NCBI GenBank assembly: GCA_963796955.1
Contig: CAWCNJ010000005.1
Coordinates: 1-64,000 of the forward strand
Origin: Endomicrobiales bacterium
GTDB lineage: Bacteria; Elusimicrobiota; Endomicrobiia; Endomicrobiales; JALOBY01
Direction: 5' to 3'
Length of the DNA: 64,000 bases
Shown: one piece after another, positions 1,581-62,540 of the stretch
Layout of the letters: every line of letters begins with the position of its first letter
How positions within the stretch are numbered: the first letter of the stretch is position 1
Position numbers and translations under genes: made by a program
The notes under the pieces: model-generated
What the model saw: only the letters and a program-made list of their open reading frames with translations
Database searches by the model: none
Told to the model about the DNA's origin: nothing

Positions 1581-3584
1581 TTAACACCATAAGTAGTTCC
1601 TGCAGCATCTGCCGCTCTTCGGGATCGTCGAATTGCTGAGCGCGTCACGAATAGTTTTGCCCACCCGCTCGCCAAGGCCGATGCCGCCGAACTCGGCATG
1701 GTAGCGAATAATGAAGGAAGCCCATTTCTGCTGGCGCTGATCATGAATGCCGAAAGCCTTAAAGACAGCCGGCACCAACAGCGAGCCGCGCAGGGTATGA
1801 TCGCCGTAATCGTACATATCTCCTACGTCGTGGAAGAAGGTTATCATGTTGATAAGCGCCATAGGGTCGGCGATACCGGTTTTTTTCATATACTCTTTCG
1901 TGTGTTGTAATGCATTGCAGAACTGAGAGAACTCGCCGTTTTCCTCGATCACTTCCTTGCCGGCGCGCAGCCGCTCGAAGGAGGCATAATCACGACGGTC
2001 GAACTGGTCCATGAAAACATTCAACAGGATGCAATGATCCAGGATGCTGGAACCGTTATATTTTTCGCGCGACAGCGGCTGCAGGTAGGACATCGAGGCG
2101 GCCAGCTCGCCCGTGCGATTCATAGCCTGAAGCCGGGCGGCAACATCCGGCGCCTGGAAGTCTTCTTTCAGGCGGGCAAACAGCGCAGGCTCGGTCGTTA
2201 AAGGCGGCAATTGCTCTCGTGCCTGTTCCGGCATTTCGCGGGTGCGAAGGCGGTCGGTAATTTCCGACAAACTGCCGTCGGCGATATAGGGCAGCATGCG
2301 CAGGTCGCGGTGCCCGGTGGTAACGGCAAGCACCATTTCAACGTCTTCCTTTTTCATATGAAGCTTTTGCAGCAGCGGCAACAGTATTTCTGCGGCGTCT
2401 TCCTCATCGTTACCCAACAGGATGCGCGCATAGTCGGCCAGAATGTTACAAAGGAACAATACTTTCAGTATGTCCGGGTCCTGGCGGTCCTGGTTCAGCG
2501 CGGCATACTTGCGCCACATTTGCGCCACCAGCTGCGGGTTCAGATCGGGAGTGCCCTGAACCCGGCGGCTGTTAAGATAGTCATAGACTTGTTTTTCCGA
2601 TAGAAACCCATTCGAGCCGGAAGAAAGATAGCTGAGCATTTTGCAGGATTCTTTCAGTTGATCATAACGGCTATTGCCGGCCCAGAAGGCGTCGCCGGAA
2701 TCGACAAAGAAGTCCAGATCAGGCAAGTTCGTATATTGCTGCGCCCAGCCTAGAAACTCTTCTATTGGCGGATTGGGCGAGGCCCACATCGTTTGAAATG
2801 CCGTAACACCCTTTTGCGGCATCGCGGCGACACTGTTCCTCAGCGCCTCCAACAATCCTCTGCGGATCTCCAGGTGCTCGTCTCCGTGGATAAGGTATTG
2901 GGTATACGATTGAATGGACTCATCGTAGCGCACGCAGCGCAGCGCGTGGAAATAACAGGTCACGGCATCACGATGCCGCCCCGCCAGCGTGTTCTTCTTT
3001 GCTTCCTTCACCAGCGCATTGCGCAGCTCATCCAGCGAGATCTTTTCAACACCCAACTGTGTACTTATAACGTCTAACTCCTTGCGGATGTTGCCGCGCA
3101 CGATGTTGTCAGTTCCTCTTTTCTCGATGATCTGCTGCCTTAGATCCCTGCGCTGTTCCAGGTTACGCCCAAGGATAATATCCACAAAAGCATCCACCGG
3201 GGAGGTATAGCCGATAGGCTCCAACGGTGCGACAACAGGCTTATCCGCATTTTGTGCTATTTCGGCAATTTCAGGATCATCATTACGCAACCTCAGATAT
3301 GATCTTATAAATGCGTTGTCATCAAATGTTAATGAAACGGGTATTTCTCTCTCCAGAAGTTTTTCGTATATTTTGAATAATTTATCAGTTTTAGTCTCGT
3401 TAGAATATCTGGACTGATATAAACAGAACCTTACTGCATCACCCTGTATCGGTAATCTCAGCTCGGCATAATTTTCAACGAACTCAATGCTGTTACCGCC
3501 GAATTTGGCGTATCCATCTACATCGAGGAACGTTTCTCTCTGTTCCTGTTCGCTGCTTTGTGCAATGCGCCTATGCCTGACCAA
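1581..3584 (-). CDS. Second fragment of the giant protein, containing a GlnD/CCA-type HD domain
   Basis: 667-aa ORF overlapping the 1048-aa ORF. Motifs SILDHC, FFHDVGD, DHTLRG, IIRYH; VLTAADILA follows in a shifted frame at ~1560-1600. Confidence 0.6.
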   Translation of the reverse strand: MVRHRRIAQSSEQEQRETFLDVDGYAKFGGNSIEFVENYAELRLPIQGDAVRFCLYQSRYSNETKTDKLFKIYEKLLEREIPVSLTFDDNAFIRSYLRLRNDDPEIAEIAQNADKPVVAPLEPIGYTSPVDAFVDIILGRNLEQRRDLRQQIIEKRGTDNIVRGNIRKELDVISTQLGVEKISLDELRNALVKEAKKNTLAGRHRDAVTCYFHALRCVRYDESIQSYTQYLIHGDEHLEIRRGLLEALRNSVAAMPQKGVTAFQTMWASPNPPIEEFLGWAQQYTNLPDLDFFVDSGDAFWAGNSRYDQLKESCKMLSYLSSGSNGFLSEKQVYDYLNSRRVQGTPDLNPQLVAQMWRKYAALNQDRQDPDILKVLFLCNILADYARILLGNDEEDAAEILLPLLQKLHMKKEDVEMVLAVTTGHRDLRMLPYIADGSLSEITDRLRTREMPEQAREQLPPLTTEPALFARLKEDFQAPDVAARLQAMNRTGELAASMSYLQPLSREKYNGSSILDHCILLNVFMDQFDRRDYASFERLRAGKEVIEENGEFSQFCNALQHTKEYMKKTGIADPMALINMITFFHDVGDMYDYGDHTLRGSLLVPAVFKAFGIHDQRQQKWASFIIRYHAEFGGIGLGERVGKTIRDALSNSTIPKSGRCCRNYLWC

Positions 3585-11298: not shown

Positions 11299-11326
11299 GT
11301 AGGGGCGAATAATTATTCGCCCCTAC
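11299..11326. repeat. REP-like 28-bp palindrome (GTAG type)
   Basis: gtaggggcgaataa-ttattcgcccctac, a perfect palindrome 3 nt after the rodA stop. Confidence 0.85.
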
Positions 11327-19536: not shown

Positions 19537-19938
19537 CTATTTCGCTGCGGGTGCCGCTGCCGCCGCTGCCGCCTTGCCTGCCGAGCCTACCGTCTTACGA
19601 CGGCCGCGACGGGTACGGGCGTTGGTCTTGGTGCGCTGGCCGCGAACCGGCAGGTTCCGGCGATGACGGTAACCGCGGTACGAGCCGATATCCATCAGGC
19701 GGCGAATATGCTGCTGTATGTCGCGTCTGAGATCGCCTTCCACCTTATAATTTTTCGCGATGATGGTGTTAAGTTTGTTAACATCGTCTTCGTTAAGGTC
19801 TTTTACGCGCTTGGCTGGGTCCATCTGGGCTTCCGCGAGCACTTCGTCGGCGATAGCGGGCCCGATGCCGTAAACATATCTCAATGCGATATCAATTCTT
19901 TTGGTCTTTGGTAAGTCAATTCCTGCAACTCTTGCCAT
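19537..19938 (-). CDS. rpsM: 30S ribosomal protein S13
   Basis: [23 protein letters not shown]. Confidence 0.97.
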
Positions 19939-19998
19939 TGGTTCTGCCTCCGGTGTGTTTTCGCCAAATCCAAGCTATATATGTAAATGCGAGTAAAC

Positions 19999-20007
19999 AT
20001 TATAGCA
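19999..20007 (-). promoter_or_regulatory. Possible extended -10 promoter for the alpha operon
   Basis: TGCTATAAT about 60 nt upstream of rpsM; no clear -35. Confidence 0.4.
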
Positions 20008-20033
20008 TTTATTTGGCGCTGCTTTAGATAAAT

Positions 20034-20147
20034 TTATCCCTGGCGCTGTTTGTGGCGCGGGTCCGCACAGACCACACGCGTTACACCCTTGCGCTTGATA
20101 ACCTTGCATTTCTGACAAATTGGCTTTACTGATGCACGTACTTTCAT
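20034..20147 (-). CDS. rpmJ: 50S ribosomal protein L36
   Basis: Not in the ORF track. Manual translation gives [37 protein letters not shown]. Confidence 0.97.
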
Positions 20148-20221
20148 GGAACACCTCTTGTCCTTGTTATAGCCTATCGTGACATCCCGGCGTCAACGGC
20201 TTTGCCTTAGAGTGCCGGGAT
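20148..20221 (-). repeat. Hairpin+RBS cassette, copy A (upstream of rpmJ)
   Basis: ATCCCGGC-ACT..GCCGTTGAC-GCCGGGAT plus a 36-nt conserved tail ending at ATG. Confidence 0.85.
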
Positions 20222-20235
20222 ATACACTCTTCGTT

Positions 20236-20454
20236 TTATTTTTCTCTATATGTTATGCGGCCCCGCGTCAAGTCGTACGGGGACAGCTCAACTTTCACTT
20301 TATCACCGGGCAGGATCTTGATGTAATGCATACGCATCTTGCCGCAGATGTGCGCCAGTATCTTATGGCCGCCTTCTATTTCTACGCGAAACATAGCGTT
20401 CGGTAAAGCCTCTAATATGATCCCTTCTACAAGTATCTTGTCTTCTTTTGTCAT
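20236..20454 (-). CDS. infA: Translation initiation factor IF-1
   Basis: [34 protein letters not shown]. Confidence 0.98.
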
Positions 20455-20531
20455 GGAGCCCCTCTAGCTTTTATCATTGCCGCTTGCGACATCCCGGCGT
20501 CAACGGCGGGTGTTGCACACAGTGCCGGGAT
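20455..20531 (-). repeat. Hairpin+RBS cassette, copy B (upstream of infA)
   Basis: Same consensus; 36-nt tail to ATG. Confidence 0.85.
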
Positions 20532-20544
20532 ATATACTTTCCCT

Positions 20545-21321
20545 TTATCTTGGCGTCAATATCTCACTGCCGTCTTCGGTTACCGCGACCATATGTTCTT
20601 CATGGGCGCACAGCTTGCCGTCGGCGGTCACTACCGTCCAGCCGTCAGACAGCGTCTTTACATCCCGTCCGCCTTCATTTATCATTGGTTCTATACAAAT
20701 GACCATCCCGGGGACCAGGCGAACGCCTGTTCCGGGAGTGCCGAAATTCATTACCGGCGGTTCTTCATGAAGCTGTCTGCCTATGCCGTGGCCTACGTAT
20801 TCACGTACTACGGAAAATCCATTTGCTTCAGCGTGTTTCTGTATCGCGAACGAGACATCACCAAGCCTGTTGCCGGGCCTTACCGCTTCTATCGCCCGTG
20901 CCAGACATTCCCGCGTTACTTTCATCAGGCGCAGCGCCGTCGGCGAGACGGTGCCGACCGGAAAAGTCGCGGCGCAGTCGCCGTAAAAACCATCGGCGAT
21001 CGTACCCAGGTCAATGGTGACCACATCACCGTTCTTCAATTTTTTTCCGGAACGGGGAATGCCATGCACCAGTTCTTCATTTACGGAGACACAGGCAGTC
21101 GCGGGGTATCCACGGTAACCAAGGAAGGCGGGCTTCATACCTTTTTTGGAAATGGCCTCGAACGCTATATCATCCAACTCTTTTGTAGAGATGCCGGGCT
21201 TGATCGATTCAGAGATCTTTTTTAGCACTTCCGCGGCGGCTGTTCCCGCCACACGCAGCTTTTCCATATCCGACGAAGACTTCAATTCTATAAGCGGCTG
21301 ATTATTTTTCGATCGATTCAC
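20545..21321 (-). CDS. map: Methionine aminopeptidase type I
   Basis: SVNEELVHGIP, GHGIG, IEPMIN, HEEH. Start uncertain (GTG 21321 overlapping adk). Confidence 0.95.
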   Translation of the reverse strand: MNRSKNNQPLIELKSSSDMEKLRVAGTAAAEVLKKISESIKPGISTKELDDIAFEAISKKGMKPAFLGYRGYPATACVSVNEELVHGIPRSGKKLKNGDVVTIDLGTIADGFYGDCAATFPVGTVSPTALRLMKVTRECLARAIEAVRPGNRLGDVSFAIQKHAEANGFSVVREYVGHGIGRQLHEEPPVMNFGTPGTGVRLVPGMVICIEPMINEGGRDVKTLSDGWTVVTADGKLCAHEEHMVAVTEDGSEILTPR

Positions 21322-21967
21322 AAATGGCCTTGAAGATGCCGTCCACCGCACCGCTTCCCTGAACCTTTCTGACTATTCCGGATTTAGAATAATATTCAAT
21401 GATCGGGCTGGTTTGATCTTTGTATACCGACAGACGTTTGCGGATCGTTGTTTCATTGTCATCGGCGCGTTGAATAACTTTGCCTTTGCAGGTGTCGCAG
21501 ACATCGGCTGTTTTAGCCGGCTGTGTAATGGTGTTGTATGTCGCGCCGCAGGCAACACATACCCGGCGGCTTGCAAGGCGTTTTACTATCTCTTCGTCCT
21601 CAACAATTATCGCGACAACCTTCTCTATCTTTTTACCGGCAGAAGCTCCTTCGGATCGGGCTTCCGCAAGAGCCTTATCAAGGGCCTCGGCCTGCGGTAT
21701 AGTGCGCGGGAAGCCGTCCAGCAGGAATCCTTTTTCAGTATCCTTTCTGGTAAGGCGTTCCATGACAAGCTTAATCACCAGTTCATCCGGCACCAGCTTG
21801 CCGGCGCTCATGTAGCTTTGCAGTTCTTTTCCAAGCGCCGAACCGCTTTCGGAAGCTTCGCGGAACATATCCCCTGTGGAAATATGAGGAATGATATATT
21901 TCGCTGCTATTTTTTTTGCCTGTGTGCCTTTACCTGCGCCCGGGGGACCAACCAAGATCAAGTTCAT
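21302..21967 (-). CDS. adk: Adenylate kinase with Zn-binding lid
   Basis: GPPGAGKGTQ, LLDGFPRT, CxxC...CxxC lid. Confidence 0.98.
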   Translation of the reverse strand: MNLILVGPPGAGKGTQAKKIAAKYIIPHISTGDMFREASESGSALGKELQSYMSAGKLVPDELVIKLVMERLTRKDTEKGFLLDGFPRTIPQAEALDKALAEARSEGASAGKKIEKVVAIIVEDEEIVKRLASRRVCVACGATYNTITQPAKTADVCDTCKGKVIQRADDNETTIRKRLSVYKDQTSPIIEYYSKSGIVRKVQGSGAVDGIFKAICESIEK

Positions 21968-21978
21968 TATATGCTCCG

Positions 21979-23307
21979 TTATTTAATGTTAAACCAGCGG
22001 CCTTTGATACGGCCGTCTTTTACGAAACCGTCGTAATGGCGCATGATCAAGTGAGACTCTATCTGGCCGACCGTGTCCAGCGCTACGCCGACAACGATCA
22101 GCAGAGAGGTGCCGCCGAAAAAGAAAGGCGCATTGAACAATCTTCTCATATAATCAGGCATCACGGCTATACAGGCCACGAACAGGGCGCCGCCAAGGGT
22201 TATGCGCTCGAGTATTTTCTGTATGTGCAGCGCCGTCGGCTCGCCCGGGCGTATACCGGGAACAAAGCCGCCCCATTTTTTCATATTTTCGGCAAGCTCT
22301 TTGGGGTTGAAGGCGACCGAATTATAGAAGTAGCAGAAAAATATAATAAGAGCGGCGTACACCACTTCATAGGTTACCGTTCCGCGGTTCCACCACTCGG
22401 AGACCATCTTGGCCATAGGGTTGTTCGGAAAGAACTGAGCCATGGTCAACGGGGCTGAAAGCAATGAGATCGCGAATATTACCGCGATAACGCCCGACTG
22501 GTCAACCTTCAGGGGCAGGAACGTGCTGGCACCGCCATACATTTTACGGCCTACCATTCGTTTAGCATACTGCACCGGTATTTTTCGCTGCGCGGTTTCC
22601 ACCCAGACAACGGCTGCCATTACCGCGAGCACGATCGCCAGCAAACCGACGACCGCGAAAATAGATATTTCATCCAGGCGCACCAGCCTGATAACGTCTT
22701 TTACCGCGCCCGGCAGACGGTCAACGATACCCGCGAAGATCATAAGCGAAATACCGTTGCCAATACCCATCTCGGTTATCTGCTCGCCGAACCACATAAC
22801 TACGATGGTACCGGTAATAAGCGTAATGACCGTCATGGTTATCCAGGCGGTGGTCGCATCTTCAACCACGGAAAAGCCCGAGGGGGTCGGCATGCGGCTC
22901 ATTGCCAGCGTAAGCCCGAAAGACTGTATTGCGCCCAGCAGCAAAGTGAAATAGCGTGTATATTGGTTCAGTTTCTTGCGCCCGAGATCCCCTTCTTTCG
23001 CAAGCCGGTCCAGATAGGGTATCAAATGCGCGCCCTGTAGCAAGGACATGATAATAGAGGCGTTGATGTAGGGCATGATACCCATGGAGAAAATGGACAG
23101 TTTGCTCAGCGCTCCGCCCGAAAACATATCCATAAAACCAAGCAGAGAGTTCTGGTGAGCGTCAAAGAGCGAACGTAAAGCAACCGCGTTCACACCCGGC
23201 ACGGGTATAGCGGCGCCTATGCGATAGGCGGCTATCAGGGCCAGCGTGAAAAACACGCGTTTTTTAAGTTCCGGCACTTTAAAAATATCTGCGAAGGTTT
23301 TTAGCAT
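21979..23307 (-). CDS. secY: Preprotein translocase SecY
   Basis: GIMPYINASII, GIGNGISL, PGIRPG, GGTSLLIVVGV. Confidence 0.98.
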   Translation of the reverse strand: MLKTFADIFKVPELKKRVFFTLALIAAYRIGAAIPVPGVNAVALRSLFDAHQNSLLGFMDMFSGGALSKLSIFSMGIMPYINASIIMSLLQGAHLIPYLDRLAKEGDLGRKKLNQYTRYFTLLLGAIQSFGLTLAMSRMPTPSGFSVVEDATTAWITMTVITLITGTIVVMWFGEQITEMGIGNGISLMIFAGIVDRLPGAVKDVIRLVRLDEISIFAVVGLLAIVLAVMAAVVWVETAQRKIPVQYAKRMVGRKMYGGASTFLPLKVDQSGVIAVIFAISLLSAPLTMAQFFPNNPMAKMVSEWWNRGTVTYEVVYAALIIFFCYFYNSVAFNPKELAENMKKWGGFVPGIRPGEPTALHIQKILERITLGGALFVACIAVMPDYMRRLFNAPFFFGGTSLLIVVGVALDTVGQIESHLIMRHYDGFVKDGRIKGRWFNIK

Positions 23308-23326
23308 AATTTCGTATTATCCCATC

Positions 23327-23354
23327 GTTGGGACGCAAGATCTTGCGTCCCAAC
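23327..23354. repeat. REP-like 28-bp palindrome
   Basis: gttgggacgcaaga-tcttgcgtcccaac, perfect; 8 nt after the rplO stop. Confidence 0.85.
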
Positions 23355-23362
23355 AAGAATAT

Positions 23363-23857
23363 TTACTTCTTTTTAACAACCTTTTTTACACCTTTAACAA
23401 CAGGAGCAGGCCCCTTAAGCACTTCAGCTGTCCCGCCGGCCTTTATTATACAGTCAGCGGCCATTTTTGAATATGCGTGCACTTTAACGATAAGCTTTTT
23501 CTTGATCTCACCGTTGGCTAATACTTTCACGCGGTCGCCTTTGTTGACCAGTTTCGCCTTGATCAAAGCACCAAGGTCAACGGTCGAACCATTGTCAAAG
23601 GCCTTTTCAAGTGCGACAAGATTCACCGGTGTGTAGGCTTCACGCTGTTTGTTATTGAAACCGCGTTTCGGCACGCGGCGCACCAGCGGCATCTGACCGC
23701 CCTCAAAACCTATCATCTTTCCGTCGCCCGATCTGGAAGTCTGGCCCTTCATGCCCATGGTGGCCGATCCGCCGTGACCGCTGCCTTCGCCGCGGCCTAT
23801 TATTTTGCGGCGGTGGCGTGCACCGTGAGCGGCTTTCAAATTGTTTAATCCTATCAT
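23363..23857 (-). CDS. rplO: 50S ribosomal protein L15
   Basis: GRGEGSG, FEGGQMPL, PKRGF. Confidence 0.97.
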   Translation of the reverse strand: MIGLNNLKAAHGARHRRKIIGRGEGSGHGGSATMGMKGQTSRSGDGKMIGFEGGQMPLVRRVPKRGFNNKQREAYTPVNLVALEKAFDNGSTVDLGALIKAKLVNKGDRVKVLANGEIKKKLIVKVHAYSKMAADCIIKAGGTAEVLKGPAPVVKGVKKVVKKK

Positions 23858-23934
23858 TGAACACCTCTTGTATTTGTAATTGCTTCTTGTGAAATCCCGC
23901 CGTCAACGGCGTGTGTGCTACACAGTGGCGGGAT
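23858..23934 (-). repeat. Hairpin+RBS cassette, copy C (upstream of rplO, where rpmD usually lies)
   Basis: ATCCCGCC...GGCGGGAT stem (compensatory change vs copies A/B); 36-nt tail to ATG. Confidence 0.85.
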
Positions 23935-23937
23935 GGG

Positions 23938-24465
23938 TTATATAACGTCCTTATTTCTCATTTTTGCTATCTCTTCACGGGTCCGCAGGTTCAACAAACC
24001 ATCCATGGTCGCGTAGACCACGTTGAAGGGATTGCCGGAACGCTGCGACTTGGTAAGGATATCGGTTATGCCCGCGGCCTCAAGCACTGCGCGCACGGCG
24101 CCGCCTGCGATAACACCTGTCCCGGGAGCGGCCGGTTTCAGGAAAACCCTGCCCGCGCCGGACTTGCCGGTGATCTCATGCGGTATAGTGGTACCGACGC
24201 GAGGCACTGACACCATGTGCTTCTGGCCACGAGCGGTGCCTTTGGCGATCGCCGACTGCACTTCATTGGCCTTGCCAAGTCCTACGCCGACTTTTCCGGC
24301 TCCGTCGCCTACGACAACAAGCGCGTTGAAGGAAAAGCGTTTACCGCCCTTAACCACTTTAGCAACACGGTTAATGGCCACTACGGTTTCTTTAAAGGGA
24401 CTCTCTACTCTTTCCGGCCTGCCGCGCCCTTCACGGGGGCGGGATTCTCTGGTTTCTTCTGCCAA
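23938..24465 (-). CDS. rpsE: 30S ribosomal protein S5
   Basis: [23 protein letters not shown] start at 24465 with GGAGG RBS. Confidence 0.97.
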
Positions 24466-24481
24466 TGTATCCTCCGAATTA

Positions 24482-24841
24482 TTAAAATTCCAGCCCAGCC
24501 GCACGGGCGGCATCGGCGAATGCTTTTACACGTCCGTGGTACTGATAACCGCCACGGTCGAACACTACTTTCTTCACGCCCTTTTCCTGGGCCTTTTTCC
24601 CTACCAGTGTTCCGACGGCTTTCGCGGCTTCTATCGTGTCCGAGGACTTAAGAGTACCCTTAAGTTCCGGCGACAATGTTGATGCTGCGGCAACAGTAAC
24701 GCCAAGATCGTCATTGATGACCTGGGCATAGATATTGTTCTGTCCGCGATACACGCACAGGCGGGGCCTTTCTGCCGTACCGTTGATCTTTGCGCTGGTG
24801 CGCGATTTGCGAAATGCGTGTTGTTCTTTACTGGTCCTCAT
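24482..24841 (-). CDS. rplR: 50S ribosomal protein L18
   Basis: [20 protein letters not shown]. Confidence 0.97.
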
Positions 24842-24888
24842 GGTATCTTCCTTTGAGTTGTTCGACTGTATTCGAACAGAGTTATTCG

Positions 24889-25459
24889 TTATTTTTTGCC
24901 ACCGGCGCCGCCGCCTGCCGAGCCTGCCGCTGCCTTACCGGCCTTGCGGATAATGTGCTCGCCGACGTATTTAATGCCGGATGCTTTGTACGGCTCAGGC
25001 TTGCGAATGGAGCGTATCTGCGCGGCCGTTTCCCCAACCACTTCTTTATTGACACCACTCAGTGTCAACTGGGTGTTCTTTTTCAACGACCCCTTTAATT
25101 CCGGCGGGAAGCATGTATATTTGCGGCAGAGAATAACCGACGTTCAGTACCAGTTTCTGCCCTTCAACGGACATCTTATAACCAAGGCCTGAAACTTCAA
25201 GTTCTTTTTTATAGCCGGTATTTACGCCTTCAAGGCAATTCTTTATAAGGCCTCTGGTTGTCCCCTGCATCATATTGGCTTCCTTGGACTCCACGCGCTG
25301 GAACACCGAAACCTGCTTAGGCTCTATCTTCACATCAAGCAAGCGGTGGATGTTCAAGCTGAGCTTTCCAAGGGGGCCTTGAAAATGCATTACTTGGTCT
25401 TTGAATTCAACTTTTACTTTTTCAGGTATGGCAAGTGCTACTTTTCCCATGCGGCTCAT
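24889..25459 (-). CDS. rplF: 50S ribosomal protein L6 (one frameshift near 25080)
   Basis: MSRMGK...GLGYK in one frame and RKPEPYK in the next; break at an A-run. Confidence 0.93.
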
Positions 25460-25474
25460 GATTATTATTCCTCT

Positions 25475-25870
25475 TTACCAGATATATCCAAGTATTTCGC
25501 CGCCAACTTTTTCGGCGCGCGCAGTTTTGTCAGACATCAGCCCACGCGGCGTGGACACTATGACGGTGCCCGTTCCGCTTGCTACCTTCGGAAGGGTAGA
25601 ATAGCCGCTGTACTTGCGTACGCCCGGCGTAGAAACGCGGCGCAGCCCTACGATCACTTTCTTTCCCTCAGGAGTATATTTCAAATAGATCCGCAGCACT
25701 CCCTGCTTATGATCTTCAATTGTCTTGTAGTTGGAGATATAACCTTCTTCCTTCAACAGCTTCGCTATCTCTACTTTCAGCTTGCTGGAGGGTATATCCA
25801 GCTTTTCCATCATTTTCGCGTTCGCGTTGCGAATACGGGTAAACAAATCTGCAATTGGATCTGTGGTCAT
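25475..25870 (-). CDS. rpsH: 30S ribosomal protein S8
   Basis: DPIADLFTRIRNA, RVSTPG, GGEIL. Confidence 0.97.
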   Translation of the reverse strand: MTTDPIADLFTRIRNANAKMMEKLDIPSSKLKVEIAKLLKEEGYISNYKTIEDHKQGVLRIYLKYTPEGKKVIVGLRRVSTPGVRKYSGYSTLPKVASGTGTVIVSTPRGLMSDKTARAEKVGGEILGYIW

Positions 25871-25895
25871 GTGTCCTCTTTAGTTGTTTCATTCC

Positions 25896-25934
25896 TTCAA
25901 AGATAAGTATCCGGTTACGGACTTTATCCCTGAA
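25896..25934 (-). promoter_or_regulatory. Candidate S8-binding mRNA hairpin (16S h21 mimic)
   Basis: TTCAGGGATAAAGTCCG-TAAC-CGGATACTTATCTTTGAA; the AAGUC/GAUACU core matches this genome's 16S h21. Confidence 0.65.
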
Positions 25935-25949
25935 ACTGCCGCGGTACGC

Positions 25950-26135
25950 TTACCAGCTTGATTTTGTGACGCCCGGGATCTCACCCTTATGGGCAAGCTT
26001 GCGGAAACAGATACGGCACAGGCCGAAGTCACGGTAAAACCCGCGGGGGCGGCCGCAGATGCTGCAACGATTGCGGTGGCGCACTGCATATTTCATCGGC
26101 TTGGCCATTTTTGCTATTGCGGATGTTGTTGCCAT
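25950..26135 (-). CDS. rpsN: 30S ribosomal protein S14 (61-aa Zn-binding type Z)
   Basis: [25 protein letters not shown]. Confidence 0.97.
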
Positions 26136-26208
26136 TGAGCACTCCTGTTGTTGTTATTGCTTCTTGCGAAATCCCGCCGCCAACGGCTTTGCTTCATAGT
26201 GGCGGGGT
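26136..26208 (-). repeat. Hairpin+RBS cassette, copy D (upstream of rpsN)
   Basis: ACCCCGCC...GGCGGGAT; fills the whole rplE-rpsN gap; 35-nt tail to ATG. Confidence 0.85.
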
Positions 26209-26784
26209 TTATTTCTCCTGTTTCTGTTCGCGTTTCTTGAACGGCATGCCGAGCAGCGTTATCAGATCACGTGCCTGTTCGTCTGAATCCGTCGAGGTTA
26301 CTACCGTTATATTCATGCCCCGGGGTTTGTCTGATTTCTCTGCGTTGACTTCGGGGAATATATACTGTTCGGTAAGGCCCAGGTTCAGATTGCCTTTACC
26401 GTCAAAAGCGTTCGGCTCAAAACCGCGGAAGTCCCTGACGCGCGGGAACGCGACGTTGACCATGCGGTCAAAGAATTCGTACATCATATCGCCGCGCAGT
26501 GTAACTTTGGCGCCTATCGGCATACCCTGGCGCAATTTGAAGTTCGAGATGGATTTTTTGGACTTGCAGATCTTCGGTTTCTGGCCGGTGATCGCCGCAA
26601 GTTCTTCCATAGCGATATCTACTATCTTAACATTTTCCTTGGCCTCGGAAAGGCCCACGTTAACCACTATTTTTTCAAGGCGCGGCACCTGATTGATGTT
26701 GGAGTACTTATACTTTTCCATCAAAGCGGGCGCTACACTATTGGTGAACGTTTCCTTCAACCTGGCGGCATTTTCTTTCTTCAT
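26209..26784 (-). CDS. rplE: 50S ribosomal protein L5
   Basis: PRLEKIVVN, KVTLRG, PRVRDFRG; ATG 26784. Confidence 0.97.
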   Translation of the reverse strand: MKKENAARLKETFTNSVAPALMEKYKYSNINQVPRLEKIVVNVGLSEAKENVKIVDIAMEELAAITGQKPKICKSKKSISNFKLRQGMPIGAKVTLRGDMMYEFFDRMVNVAFPRVRDFRGFEPNAFDGKGNLNLGLTEQYIFPEVNAEKSDKPRGMNITVVTSTDSDEQARDLITLLGMPFKKREQKQEK

Positions 26785-32505: not shown

Positions 32506-32829
32506 TTACATTTTTATTTCAATATCCACACCCGCCGGAAGATCAAGCTTCATAAGTTCTTCGACAGTTTTCTGAGACGGCTCAAGAATATCAATAAGCC
32601 TCTTGTGAACTCTCATCTCGAACTGCTCGCGCGATTTTTGTCCGCGTGAACAGAACGGTTGACGTAGTACTTCTTAATAGCAGTCGGAAGAAGCACCGGG
32701 CCCGTAATACTGGCGCCTGTGCGCCGGGCCGTTTCTACGATCTTCGCGAGCGAATCGTCAAGCATCTTGTGGTCATAGGCGCGAGCCTGATTCTCAACCT
32801 TTGCGTGGTATACTTTTTCTATTGACCAT
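32506..32829 (-). CDS. rpsJ: 30S ribosomal protein S10 (multiple frameshifts)
   Basis: Pieces across frames: [43 protein letters not shown]. Confidence 0.9.
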
Positions 32830-32835
32830 TGTTTT

Positions 32836-32927
32836 AGCTCTCAGCTCTCAGCTTTCAGCTTCCAGCTTCAGTACTCAACTAAGATTTGTCTCTTTAGCTG
32901 ACCGCTGATCGCTGACTGCTGATTGCT
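32836..32927. repeat. Inverted heptamer arrays (tuf-rpsJ gap)
   Basis: agctYtc-type x5, then gctgaYN x4; same family as 19443-19536. Confidence 0.75.
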
Positions 32928-32935
32928 CGTATTTG

Positions 32936-34144
32936 TTATTCTACAATCTCTGTCACTACTCCCGCACCGACCGTGTGGCCGCCTTCGCGGATCGCGAAGC
33001 GCAGCTGCTTCTCCATCGCTATCGGAGTTATCAGCTCTATGTCCATCAGAACGTTGTCCCCGGGCATCACCATCTCCATCCCGGCCGGAAGCTGTCGCAA
33101 CTCCCGTAACGTCTGTCGTTCTGAAATAGAACTGCGGGCGGTATCCCGTAAAGAACGGTGTGTGCCTTCCGCCTTCTTCTTTGTTCAATATGTAAACCTG
33201 GCCTTTGAATTTCTTGTGCGGCTTTATTGATCCCGGCGCTGCTATAACCTGCCCGCGCTCCACCTGGTTCTTTTCTATTCCGCTCAGCAGCACTCCTACA
33301 TTGTCTCCTGCCTGTGCTTCGTCAAGCAGCTTCCTGAACATCTCTATTCCGGTCGCCACTGATTTCTGCGTGTCCATGTATTCCTACAATCTCTACTGCG
33401 TCGCCAACCTTTAGTTTGCCGCGTCTCCACCCTGCCGGTCGCCACTGTTCCGCGCCCGGTTATCGTGAATACATCTTCCACTGACATAAGGAAAGGTTTG
33501 TCTATTTCTCTAATAGGAATCGGGATGTACTGTCCAATGCATCCATCAGCTTCATTATTGAATCTACTCCGAGCCGGATCTTTCGCCGCTGCATCGCCTT
33601 CATCGCTGAACCCCTTATCACCGGTATCTTGTCGCCGGGGAAACTGGTACTTCGTCAAAGGCTCCCTGACTTCCATCTCCACAAGGTCCAAAAGTTCTTT
33701 GTCTTCTACCGCGTCGCACTTGTTCATAAATACTACTATGTGCGGCACGTTAACCTGTTTGGCGAGCAGTATGTGCTCGCTCGTCTGAGGCATCGGGCCG
33801 TCTATGGCTGATACCACAAGTATCGCTCCGTCCATCTGCGCGGCGCCGGTGATCATGTTCTTTACATAGTCAGCATGGCCGGGGCAGTCTATATGAGCGT
33901 AATGCCTTTTTTCCGTCGAATATTCAACATGGCGACACGGCTATGGTCAGGATCTTTGAATCGTCGCGGCGTCCCTGGGCTCAGAAGCTTTCGCTACTAT
34001 GTCATATGATATGAATGTCGCAAAACCTTTGTCGGCCTGCACTTTCGTGATCGCCGCTGTCAATGTCGTTTTGCCGTGGTCAACGTGGCCTATCGTTCCT
34101 ATGTTCACGTGCGGCTTTGTGCGGTCAAATTTTGTTTTTGCCAT
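32936..34144 (-). CDS. tuf: Elongation factor Tu (multiple frameshifts)
   Basis: [49 protein letters not shown]. Confidence 0.95.
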
Positions 34145-34168
34145 TTTCTTATTCCTCCGTGTTAATTT

Positions 34169-34202
34169 GTACGGTCGCGCAAGTAAATATTTTCGCCCCT
34201 AC
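34169..34202. repeat. Degenerate REP-like palindrome
   Basis: gtacgg...tattttcgcccctac; the right arm matches 36853-36880; lies in the error-rich zone. Confidence 0.55.
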
Positions 34203-34211
34203 TTATCTTAA

Positions 34212-36322
34212 TTATTTCTTCTGCGTTGCTGATTTTTCAAGTATTTTATCTGCTATCTGTTTGGGCACTTCTTCATAATGCGAAGGTTCCATGGTATAGT
34301 TCCTCGTCCCTGTGTAAGCGAACGCAGTGTGGTCGAGTAGCCGAACATCTCGGAAAGGGGCAACGAAGCCGTGTATATGCTGAAGCTTGTTCCTTATTCC
34401 ATGTTCTCTATTTTTCCGCGGCGCGAGTTAAGATCGCCGATGACATCGCCCATATAATCTTCGGGCACGACAACTTCTATTTTCATAATGGGTTCAAGGA
34501 TAATGGGGTTCGCTCTTTTGGCAGCCGTCTTTTAAGCGCCATGGAAGCGGCGATCTTAAAGGCCATTTCATTGAAGAGTCGACTTCATGGAACGAGCCGT
34601 CTATAAGCGTTGCCTTGAAATCAACCATCGGATATCCCGCAAGCACGCCGGAGGTCAGTGCTTCCGTATACCCTTTTCAACAGCCGGGATATATTCTCTG
34701 GGAACAATGCCGCCACTTAATATTATCTACAAACTCAAAACCTTTGCCCGCCTCAAGAGGTTCGATGTTCATGACACACATGGCCGTACTGGCCTCGGCC
34801 GCCGGTCTGACTGAATATATTTACCTTCTGCCTCAACTTTTTTCTTAATTGTTTCGCGGTAAGCGACCTGCGGCCTGCCGACGTTCGCCTGCACGTTGAA
34901 TTCGCGGCGCATACGGTCAACAATGATATCCAGATGAAGCTCGCCCATGCCGGAGATGATCGTCTGATTTGTTTCTTCGTCGGTACGAATGCGGAACGTA
35001 GGATCTTCTTCAGCAAGACGGCTCATGGCAATGCCCAGCTTTTCTTCGTCAGCTTTGGATTTCGGCTCGATAGCTACTGAAATAACGGGTTCAGGGAAGA
35101 CCATGGATTCAAGCATGATCAGGATGATCCTCATCACAGAGCGTATCACCGGTCGTTGTGTTGCGCAGGCCTACCGCGGCGGCTATATCGCCTGCACGCA
35201 ACTATCTTAACTTCTTCGCGGTTGTTCGCATGCATGCGAAGTATGCTGGCAGATTCTCTCTTTGTAACCCTTTGTGGCGTTATATACATATGATCCGCTT
35301 TCAAGAGTTCCCGAATAAACTCGGAAGAATGTAAGTTTTCCCACGAACGGGTCGGTCTGGATCTTAAAGGCAAGAGAAGCAAAAGGAGCGTCGTCGCTGA
35401 CATCTCTTAACTATTACCTCATCGCCGGTATCGGGGTTAACGCCGGAGAGCGATTATCTTCTCGAGAGGAGAGGGCAGGTAATCACAGACAGCGTCAAGC
35501 AGGGGCTGTACGCCTTTGTTCTTGAAAGCGGTACCGCACAGGCAGGGAACCATCTTTATCGCGAGCGTTCCTTTGCGGATCGCACGTTTAAGCTGCGCCA
35601 CTGTGGAAGGCTTGCCTTCCATATAATTGCTCATAACTTCATCGTCAAAGTCCGCGACCTGCTCAACCATCTTGTCGTGATATTCTTTGGCTTTTTCTTT
35701 GTAGGCTTCGGGTATTTCTATCGTGCTGAATTTCGCGCCGAGCTCTTCACCGTGCCAGATATGGGCGTTCATCTGTACCAGGTCAATAACACCTTCGAAC
35801 TTATCTTCGGCGCCGATCGGCAGCTGAATGGCTACCGGGTTCGCCGCAAGCTGGTCTTTTACCTGGCCGAGCAGCATATAAAAATCCGCGCCTACTTTGT
35901 CCATCTTATTGCCGAACACAAGGCGGGGCACGCCGTAACGGTCGGCCTGGCGCCAAACGGTTTCAGACTGGGGCTCTACGCCGTTTCCGGAGTCAAAGCA
36001 GACACCGCACCGTCAAGCACTCGAGGGAGCGCTCAACTTCGACGGTAAAGTCTACGTGGCCCGGGGTGTCGATTATGTTGAACTGGCAGTCCTGCCATTT
36101 GCAATAGGTTGCAGCTGAAGTGATGGTGATACCGCGTTCGCGCTCCTGCTCCATCCAGTCCATGGTCGTTGAGCCTTCATGGACTTCGCCGATCTTATGG
36201 ATGCGGCCGGTATAATAGAGAATTCTCTCGGTCGTGGTCGTTTTACCCGCGTCAATGTGGGCAACGATACCGATGTTCCTGATCTTTTCTATTGGATATT
36301 CGCGTTTAGTTACTTCAGCCAT
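34212..36322 (-). CDS. fusA: Elongation factor G (multiple frameshifts)
   Basis: [40 protein letters not shown]. Confidence 0.95.
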
Positions 36323-46455: not shown

Positions 46456-46477
46456 TCGTCATTCACCTCGTTTTTGT

Positions 46478-46578
46478 AAAAAAATACTTCTCTCATAAGA
46501 CACGAGAGAAGTAACTTAACAAATTTTTCTCTGTCTCGGTAAGATTTATCCGCAAAGGCGGCACTTACTGTCTTAGAC
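46478..46578 (-). ncRNA. L10 leader with downstream attenuator terminator
   Basis: GTCTAAGACAGTAAG...TAAATCTTACCGAGAC core resembling the L10-leader consensus, then TACTTCTCTC/GAGAGAAGTA + T7. Confidence 0.85.
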
Positions 46579-46587
46579 TATTTAAAT

Positions 46588-47373
46588 TTAAAATTCTATG
46601 TTCCAGCCTACTGTAAAGGCCGTCTGTCCGATAAAAGATGCTTCAACTATCAGACCGTCTTTACCGGCCATCGCTACTTTGCAGCCTGCGAAGAGCGAAA
46701 CAAGGTCTTTTATGCCGCTGACAGAACCTGCGGTGTCAGTGTTGTAAAGCCAAAGGCCTTCTTTTGCTATCCTTAGTCCACTATACGGCTCAAAATGCTG
46801 GTACTTTTTGCTTGCGGTCAGGGAAGCCTGCACTTCCGTCTGCACGATCCTGTCGGAAACGACCGATGAAGAACCGGATTGTTGAAGCCTGTGCAGGCCG
46901 CATTCCAGATATTCGCCGCCCAAGTCAACCGCTATCGCGGGTGTCACGATGGTTCCCGGCATTAACAGCTTGCGAAAACCGAAACCTACGACATATCCAT
47001 TCCCGTCAGACAACAGAGTGTTCGTTATCGTCGAAGATGGATATGACAGCTCGTAATTCGCGCTGCCTATTTTGAACCAATAGTCGATCTCAGGCGTCGG
47101 CTGAAAAGCCCAGCGCACCGCCACACGATCGCTTTTTACATCGGTTGAAAGATCATTGGTAACAGCACTATGGTACTGAGCGTTACCAACCGCTATCGTG
47201 TCATTACTGTTCACCAGGAGCGATAACGTCTCGCTTGTGTGCGTGTAATAGACAGAAACCGCGCCATAGCTGGAACCCAGCTGTCGCGCGGTGAATGCTG
47301 TCTCGCCCGCGAAAACCGCGGAACTAGAGAGCATTAGTGCCATGAATAAAAGCACCAACGGTTTCTGTTTCAT
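46588..47373 (-). CDS. Hypothetical outer-membrane beta-barrel protein
   Basis: Signal peptide (..SSAVFA), amphipathic beta segments, C-terminal VGWNIEF. Confidence 0.7.
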   Translation of the reverse strand: MKQKPLVLLFMALMLSSSAVFAGETAFTARQLGSSYGAVSVYYTHTSETLSLLVNSNDTIAVGNAQYHSAVTNDLSTDVKSDRVAVRWAFQPTPEIDYWFKIGSANYELSYPSSTITNTLLSDGNGYVVGFGFRKLLMPGTIVTPAIAVDLGGEYLECGLHRLQQSGSSSVVSDRIVQTEVQASLTASKKYQHFEPYSGLRIAKEGLWLYNTDTAGSVSGIKDLVSLFAGCKVAMAGKDGLIVEASFIGQTAFTVGWNIEF

Positions 47374-62512: not shown

Positions 62513-62540
62513 GTAGAGACGCAAAATATTGCGTCTCTAC
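62513..62540. repeat. REP-like 28-bp palindrome (GTAG type)
   Basis: gtagagacgcaa-aata-ttgcgtctctac; 1 nt after the glnA stop. Confidence 0.85.

Follow-up and report, generated by a model that had tools for sequence, protein, structure and literature searches.

Short repeats that meet gene starts have been described in several bacteria. MIRU are mycobacterial repeats that insert at start codons (PMC12548453, PMC3184786), and REP2 of Neisseria and IR-A/IR-B of Borrelia plasmids stand directly before genes, where they combine a stem-loop with a ribosome-binding site (RBS) and a start (PMC3184786). PATE are gene-less derivatives of IS200/IS605 insertion sequences (IS; PMC3119063); further small GC-rich extragenic hairpins are REP/BIME with RAYT (PMC3733652) and NTS/SRM with Ssn (PMC11893778). 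All comparisons below are with these systems as presented in the consulted parts of the cited papers. An element that works like MIRU, is built like REP2 and has PATE-like ends, but in each case lacks a feature that defines the system, occurs four times in the spc region of a 64,000-nt stretch of DNA (the window; positions 1 to 64,000 of CAWCNJ010000005.1, assembly GCA_963796955.1), which is contig C5 of the 2.1-Mb, 81%-complete genome of an Endomicrobiales bacterium (G000). The four cassettes are very probably copies of a small gene-less mobile repeat of uncultured Elusimicrobiota, the phylum name that related matches bear, which lands on gene starts and supplies them with a new RBS.

The likeness to MIRU lies in length (40-100 nt), a copy number in the tens, intercistronic position, insertion at start codons and harmlessness (PMC12548453, PMC3184786). 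With REP2 and the Borrelia repeats the element shares its place and parts, as well as a lack of terminal inverted repeats (PMC3184786). PATE likewise have neither terminal inverted repeats nor target duplication, and resemble the element in their near-terminal palindrome, conserved terminal oligonucleotide, 50-100 nt single-palindrome form and loops invaded by other repeats (PMC3119063). REP/BIME and NTS/SRM share with it the small GC-rich extragenic hairpin, tens of copies and tandem arrays (PMC3733652, PMC11893778).

Cassettes of the spc region

Each cassette has an 8-bp stem around an interior of 20-25 nt, followed by a tail of 35-36 nt that carries a Shine-Dalgarno sequence (SD). All four lie on the minus strand and run up to the ATG of their host genes (genes named by NCBIfam):

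20148..20221, minus strand: copy before rpmJ; stem-loop 20184-20221, tail 20148-20183, SD 20152-20158; infA stop 14 nt upstream
20034..20147, minus strand: rpmJ (L36), host gene
20455..20531, minus strand: copy before infA; stem-loop 20491-20531, tail 20455-20490, SD 20459-20465; map stop 13 nt upstream
20236..20454, minus strand: infA (IF1), host gene
23858..23934, minus strand: copy before rplO; stem-loop 23894-23934, tail 23858-23893, SD 23862-23868; rpsE stop 3 nt upstream
23363..23857, minus strand: rplO (L15), host gene
26136..26208, minus strand: copy before rpsN; stem-loop 26171-26208, tail 26136-26170, SD 26142-26146; abuts the rplE stop
25950..26135, minus strand: rpsN (type Z S14), host gene
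26215..26219, minus strand: AGGAG, putative former SD of rpsN, within the last rplE codons and 6 nt upstream of the element start

A sequence-only reading of the window had placed the four copies in a single orientation, with tails of 36, 36, 36 and 35 nt and no fifth copy; coordinates and tail lengths were reproduced, and a profile search of the 64 kb returned no other copy. The structure proposed there stood in part. Its 8-bp outer stem and the G-C/C-G swap within it are present: across the 15 long copies the proposed structure is paired in 94% of cells, and the swap, a single pair altered on both sides and possibly inherited once, occurs in five of them. The 'variable small hairpin' is weak, with pairs in 77% of cells and no covariation, and whole copies fold no better than shuffled sequences (RNA z -1.8 to +0.6).

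The element is shorter than REP2 and the Borrelia repeats, has a single supported stem and lies mostly within operons. Those repeats carry a promoter, whereas the sense strand of the four copies holds no sigma-70-like site in a consensus scan, which sets the element apart from REP2 by description. Chance repetition of a functional site, be it an internal promoter, an internal terminator or the remnant of a ribozyme, is an extremely improbable reading of the cassettes. The loop does contain a TTGAC hexamer, but this is not conserved, and the consensus scan of the sense strand found nothing resembling a promoter or terminator in any of the four copies. The antisense GAAA-stem-UH resembles half of a type II hammerhead, and the hairpin pattern retrieved hammerheads from viral contigs; the CUGANGA core, however, is found in 0/62 copies (unit or 12-nt left flank), and Rfam scans of the window and of loci from the related genome G009 gave no hammerhead match.

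Family and target genes in the host genome

A profile built from the four copies found six further long copies in G000 (E 3.6e-19 to 1.7e-8) and several short ones; as the best match of the second-round profile on the reversed genome had E 0.033, the copies are far beyond chance. A covariance model gave 17 matches in G000, all in sense orientation, rather than hundreds in random orientation; 16 of the 17 belonged to its training set and had been found independently by profile search. Ten are long-loop copies, and seven have shorter or different loops with the tail unchanged. A fixed distance to the start codon held for 15 of the 17, which end 0-2 nt upstream of ATG; the exceptions are the more upstream of two tandem units at rplU and a copy ending inside the larB frame. 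Below threshold and outside the 17 are a tail-only copy upstream of parB and two diverged arrays near tRNA-Arg on contig C8, one of which ends at an ATG that is not a gene start. Of these arrays (L012:2883-3010, 3375-3460), one runs antisense into the tRNA-Arg 3' end and one lies before a radical-SAM-like ORF.

The 16 target genes are rpmJ, infA, rplO, rpsN, rplU, ilvD, atpA, obg, accB, bioD, glyQ, those for a flavo-diiron protein, LarB and a DtxR-like regulator, and two unnamed ORFs; 14 have a co-oriented gene within about 100 nt upstream. Only five of the 16 encode ribosomal proteins or IF1. This bears on the proposal, one of two offered by the sequence-only reading, that the cassettes are a ribosomal-protein leader or processing signal co-regulating IF1, L36, L15 and S14. 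In its favour, the spc operon has four copies within 6 kb and rplU has a fifth, and the rpsN and rpmA sites are filled in relatives. Yet 11/16 targets are neither ribosomal proteins nor IF1, the element is absent from the spc sites of the five order-level relatives compared (G001, G002, G004, G007 and G009, with G001 covering just two of the four sites), no Rfam leader matches, and the hairpin leaves no consistent cover over the SD. The proposal is largely refuted and very improbable; the other one, mobile DNA that seeks out start codons and supplies an RBS of its own, is supported by the genome-wide copies and by the filled and empty sites and junctions described below. The case is a warning that repeated structured leaders in ribosomal-protein operons of uncultured bacteria can be mobile repeats and not regulators.

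Strand bias by replication was uninformative (16/19 sites on the G-rich strand versus 73% of long ORFs, P 0.21), and an altered anti-SD was rejected, the 16S end being canonical.

Filled and empty sites

Comparison of orthologous gaps in relatives, as the sequence-only reading had suggested, found sites that are filled in some genomes and empty in others. In 5/5 order-level relatives the stop codon of rpsE and the start codon of rplO overlap, leaving no element there, and the other spc gaps in these genomes are empty or hold unrelated hairpins. Among close metagenomic relatives, four of five comparable sites are filled in one genome and unfilled in another: the rplU-rpmA site is filled in L142 and L145 and a plain 22-nt gap in G000, the obg site is filled in G000 and L145 and unfilled in L142, and the rplU and rplO sites, both filled in G000, are unfilled in L142 and L144 respectively. 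At the fifth, rpsN, G000 and L144 both carry the element. To the left of the element at rpmA, L145 has the empty RBS of G000 minus one G in the SD, and at rpsN the old SD persists in the end of rplE, 6 nt upstream of the element, whose start there probably marks the place of the old ATG. These two sites therefore indicate that insertion takes place at the start codon and leaves the old SD stranded upstream. Such precise insertion, together with a start-codon TG supplied by the target, distinguishes the element from REP2 and the Borrelia repeats.

In the spc operons examined (L086-L090 from G002, G009, G004, G001 and G007; L142; L144), the same gaps hold different elements in each genome. Most intercistronic gaps in G002, G004, G007 and G009 hold genome-specific imperfect palindromes (6-7 nt repeats) or REP-like hairpins, many of which end in SD plus ATG. 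Separately, rpmD (L30) is absent between rpsE and rplO (window 23935-23937), and Pfam L30 was undetected in all five genomes tested (G000, G001, G002, G007 and G009); the rplO copy as a replacement of rpmD was accordingly rejected.

Ends and insertion sites

The unit is TCC-hairpin-tail-TCAA, about 55-120 nt long, without target duplication. Its ends are defined by four clean insertions in tRNA T-loop fragments (GGTT^CRA; L038, L041, L094 and L099, from G002 and G007) and four nested insertions within the element's own tail (L059, L065, L072 and L222), all lacking duplication; a fifth tRNA insertion, L098, fits on the right side only. TCC and TCAA are not inverted repeats of each other, and the element has no terminal inverted repeats. 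MIRU, in contrast, has tetranucleotide direct repeats and imperfect terminal inverted repeats, neither of which is found here.

Insertion sites comprise the start codon (A^TG), the host SD (A^GGA), the element's own tail and tRNA T-loops, the two main ones, A^TGA and A^GGA, having A^NG(A) in common. Ends were sampled in G009, whose matches number at least 40 and often form arrays of two or three. From 55 loci around matches a script drew 59 candidates, of which 40 had a parsable right end, the remaining 19 being inner array units and false positives. A G stands two bases past the cut at 29/40 of these ends and an A precedes it at 30/40. Sixteen ends lie directly at a start, another 16 have a host-type GGAG after them, and eight are nested, in tandem or (two of them) without a visible gene start, classes that were set after hand correction of two left flanks and hand classing of one nested case.

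The tail as a probable ribosome-binding site

Within the last 14 nt, GAGG or GGAG is present in 16/16 start-abutting G009 copies versus 0/16 copies followed by a host SD, and the old SD is kept in the left flank of 10/16 versus 1/16; the copies are related, so that these RBS tests and all P values given here are overstated, which tells against the case made from them. The same hairpin types occur in both classes, and inner units of tandem arrays have decayed ends. The tail thus probably works as an RBS where one is needed, its SD tracking need site by site and presumably being used in vivo. At obg, the copies of G000 and L145 are identical at 71/76 positions, compared with 52/98 fourfold sites; the rpsN pair (60/75) and the rpmA pair (64/76) may be separate insertions.

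Conservation of this kind is also what would be expected of a host-owned portable leader of REP2 type, which would owe its spread to duplication or gene conversion instead of a transposase and would let a regulator or nuclease control a set of genes together. In favour of such a leader, loop sequence and tail are conserved past the SD, the obg copy is far above synonymous-site conservation, many G000 targets are highly expressed housekeeping genes, and no mover has been found. Against it stand the exact ends without flanking homology, the T-loop and own-tail insertions, tandem arrays with decayed inner SDs, target sets that differ between close relatives and the lack of a pathway common to the targets, and a host-owned leader is on balance improbable.

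For a mobile repeat, the comparisons suggest the following course. A unit of about 55-120 nt, with a GC-rich hairpin whose loop varies freely and a conserved tail, would insert into translation-initiation regions, always in sense direction and without target duplication, the cut falling after the A of ATG and the element's last A restoring the codon. The old SD, stranded upstream, would decay, and the GAGG or GGAG of the A-rich tail would become the gene's RBS. Insertion would thereby be tolerable even in essential operons and later indispensable, so that selection keeps the copies. A tiny selfish repeat could in this way front essential genes (IF1, S14, L15, L36, AtpA) harmlessly and then become required, because it replaces their RBS. 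The clean junctions offer a testable model of start-codon targeting, for which the MIRU literature, in the parts examined, offers no enzyme.

The tail micro-ORF

The tail also contains a frame of eight codons that starts 23 nt upstream of the host ATG; where the host gene opens with ATGA, the TGA of the frame overlaps that start at -4. Three window copies show this frame:

20451..20477, minus strand: micro-ORF of the infA copy, 8 codons with ATG start; TGA overlaps infA ATGA (-4)
20144..20170, minus strand: micro-ORF frame of the rpmJ copy; start changed to ATA, TGA overlaps the rpmJ start
23854..23880, minus strand: micro-ORF frame of the rplO copy; start changed to ATT, TGA overlaps the rplO start

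The ATG is thus kept in the infA copy only. Across copies, the micro-ORF AUG is present in 7/9 with a stop within 11 nt of the host start versus 1/12 others (P 0.002), a test and 11-nt threshold chosen post hoc, with one start position (hyp90) set by hand, which weakens the case. With the strict -4 overlap the ATG is present in 6/8 versus 2/13 copies (P 0.018; 0.04 for G000 alone), and the orthologous obg pair differs in micro-ORF start in the predicted way. In the window lineage, then, the frame would stop on the host ATGA at -4, with AUG kept mainly where the stop is near, and the micro-ORF may be used in vivo. Weighing against a general role, the G009 copies mostly have ATT at this position and lack the micro-ORF. 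Given these copies, the post hoc test and the absence of a clear SD, the micro-ORF is regarded as a subfamily trait, and its pattern may mean 'purged where harmful' instead of 'selected for coupling'.

MIRU has an internal ORF coupled at -4 (PMC12548453, PMC3184786); here, eight of 21 lineage copies have a stop at -4, six of them with ATG. MIRU ends overlap both neighbouring genes, whereas the micro-ORF does not overlap the upstream gene, which stops 0-14 nt ahead of the hairpin and some 50-70 nt ahead of the micro-ORF start. Further differences from MIRU are that the element carries its own SD, enters SDs and T-loops, belongs to another phylum and has, in G009, a subfamily without the micro-ORF.

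At the larB junction (C3:152812), the micro-AUG shares the reading frame of the gene, is preceded by GAGG and may serve as the larB start. An assembly error at this junction is also possible, because the assembly has frameshifts in tuf, fusA, rpsJ and rplF. In the window, rplF, rpsJ, tuf and fusA are split by frameshifts (24889-25459, 32506-32765, 32868-36322), most likely assembly indels.

Candidate movement

The junctions point to mobility as such, and the ends invite comparison with PATE and IS608, whose end chemistry is described in PMC3201880, PMC5934647 and PMC5027513. Tentatively, the repeat may move as single-stranded DNA by an IS200/IS605-type HUH transposase acting in trans, with antisense GA(A/C/G)A as guide for TCN^T. 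IS608 has a four-base guide 5' of the hairpin foot, of which base 1 pairs with target -3, base 2 with target -4, and one A enters the protein (PMC3201880, PMC5934647). On the antisense strand before the hairpin, 50 of 58 parsed copies have GAAA, with GACA in four, GAGA in three and AAAA in one; under the IS608 guide rule, a GAAA foot predicts the target TCNT, the complement of ANGA. A pair made by the fourth guide base is also reportedly formed in IS608. The small second stem in the tail has mismatches mostly of a type that is a G-T wobble on the antisense strand. By analogy with IS608, the hypothetical guides of the window copies would be:

23891..23894, plus strand: candidate guide tetranucleotide GAAA of the rplO copy, antisense strand, hairpin foot
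20181..20184 and 20488..20491, plus strand: candidate guide GACA
26168..26171, plus strand: candidate guide GAAA

A stricter version, which is unlikely, is a minimal transposon with one hairpin, in which a four-base guide of its own would direct a host HUH transposase to TCN^T. Its free end would mimic an initiation region, so that each insertion would put a gene under a standard SD and a coupling micro-ORF that the host could not lose again. Were guided HUH movement true, translation starts would be targeted by a base-pairing program, and selfish DNA would have a route to supplying the RBS of essential genes; the opposite strand of TCN^T reads as the commonest start context (ATGA) and the SD core (AGGA).

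Several findings weigh against movement of this kind or against mobility in general. Selection for harmless insertions would also enrich ATGA and AGGA, seven of the 40 G009 ends are followed by CAT, AAT, TAT or similar and not by ANG, and main-stem wobbles carry no strand signal (5 G-T, 6 A-C). At the T-loop sites the cut is one base off the IS608 register. G000 copies are mutually 68-86% alike and give no sign of current activity in that genome. Copies directly flank none of 33 Y1-transposase loci and none of 25 GIY-YIG loci (two of the latter have copies about 1 kb off, before other genes), and TnpB gave no match over cut-off in five genomes. No mover was thus found among Y1, GIY-YIG and TnpB genes in genomes 81-97% complete, PF05635 four-helix-bundle and DUF559 genes not having been searched for. 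Plasmids and phages gave no match, and no copy with a tail was found there or in viral contigs.

These results also separate the element from its nearest structural relatives. Unlike PATE, it has no cognate IS with the same palindrome among those found, its hairpin abuts one end and it targets translation starts; the sole IS200-like element of G009 has other ends. Unlike REP, it has no GTAG/CGTC tag at a fixed place, and Y1 loci are unflanked. The published degenerate SRM pattern matched 0/21 and 0/40 copies, and the strictly one-way orientation and tie to gene starts set the element apart from both REP and NTS/SRM.

GTAG-type REP palindromes do occur in the window, at 11299-11326, 23327-23354 (between rplO and secY) and 62513-62540, with six in the genome by a simple pattern. 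Elsewhere in G000, a truncated duplicate of its own 5' part precedes a Y1 transposase gene at a contig end (L028; C4:1-900). Small GIY-YIG genes flanked by tRNA-like fragments were seen at L184, L187 and L194 (G007, G002 and G009), some of the fragments having a bare TCC...GGA mini-hairpin in the T-loop or anticodon arm.

Distribution in relatives and other DNA

Covariance model R1 matched 5/101 genomes of the order, model R2 matched 5/151 of the phylum, including one weak partial match, and an exact pattern matched 3/122 of the class. With model R1, family f10 had none in 86 genomes, and the element was seen solely in the non-f10 families of the order. In genome contigs the exact pattern gave 20 matches, 13 of them in one Elusimicrobiota metagenome-assembled genome, which was not added to the genome count; the other seven lacked the hairpin and were judged chance. 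The long form is also present on four metagenome contigs from closer relatives, whose genes show about 73-85% nucleotide identity; a further match, L141, was dropped as a partial match within coding sequence.

The sequence-only reading had not recognized a described family. Rfam gave no gathering-score match in the window, none over the copies at E up to 10 (19900-26400) and nothing relevant in 20 loci of G009 and the metagenome relatives. The literature searched, in which subscription journals were mostly outside coverage and supplements excluded, gave no description of the element family. The architecture itself, however, has published precedents in MIRU, REP2 and PATE.

Viral contigs gave 0 matches to the tail pattern; the hairpin alone matched 40 times there, never with the tail, and of 18 such matches checked, 14 are type II hammerheads on the opposite strand. 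Such hammerheads lie between phage genes, several directly before SD and start (L257, L265, L267, L271-L274, L279-L281, L283, L284, L295 and L296). Other features of the window include short tandem heptamer repeats at 6392-6421/10734-10763 and 19500-19533/32894-32927, one pair inverted 4.3 kb apart and one direct, and an L10 leader (RF00557) on the minus strand at 46472-46595.

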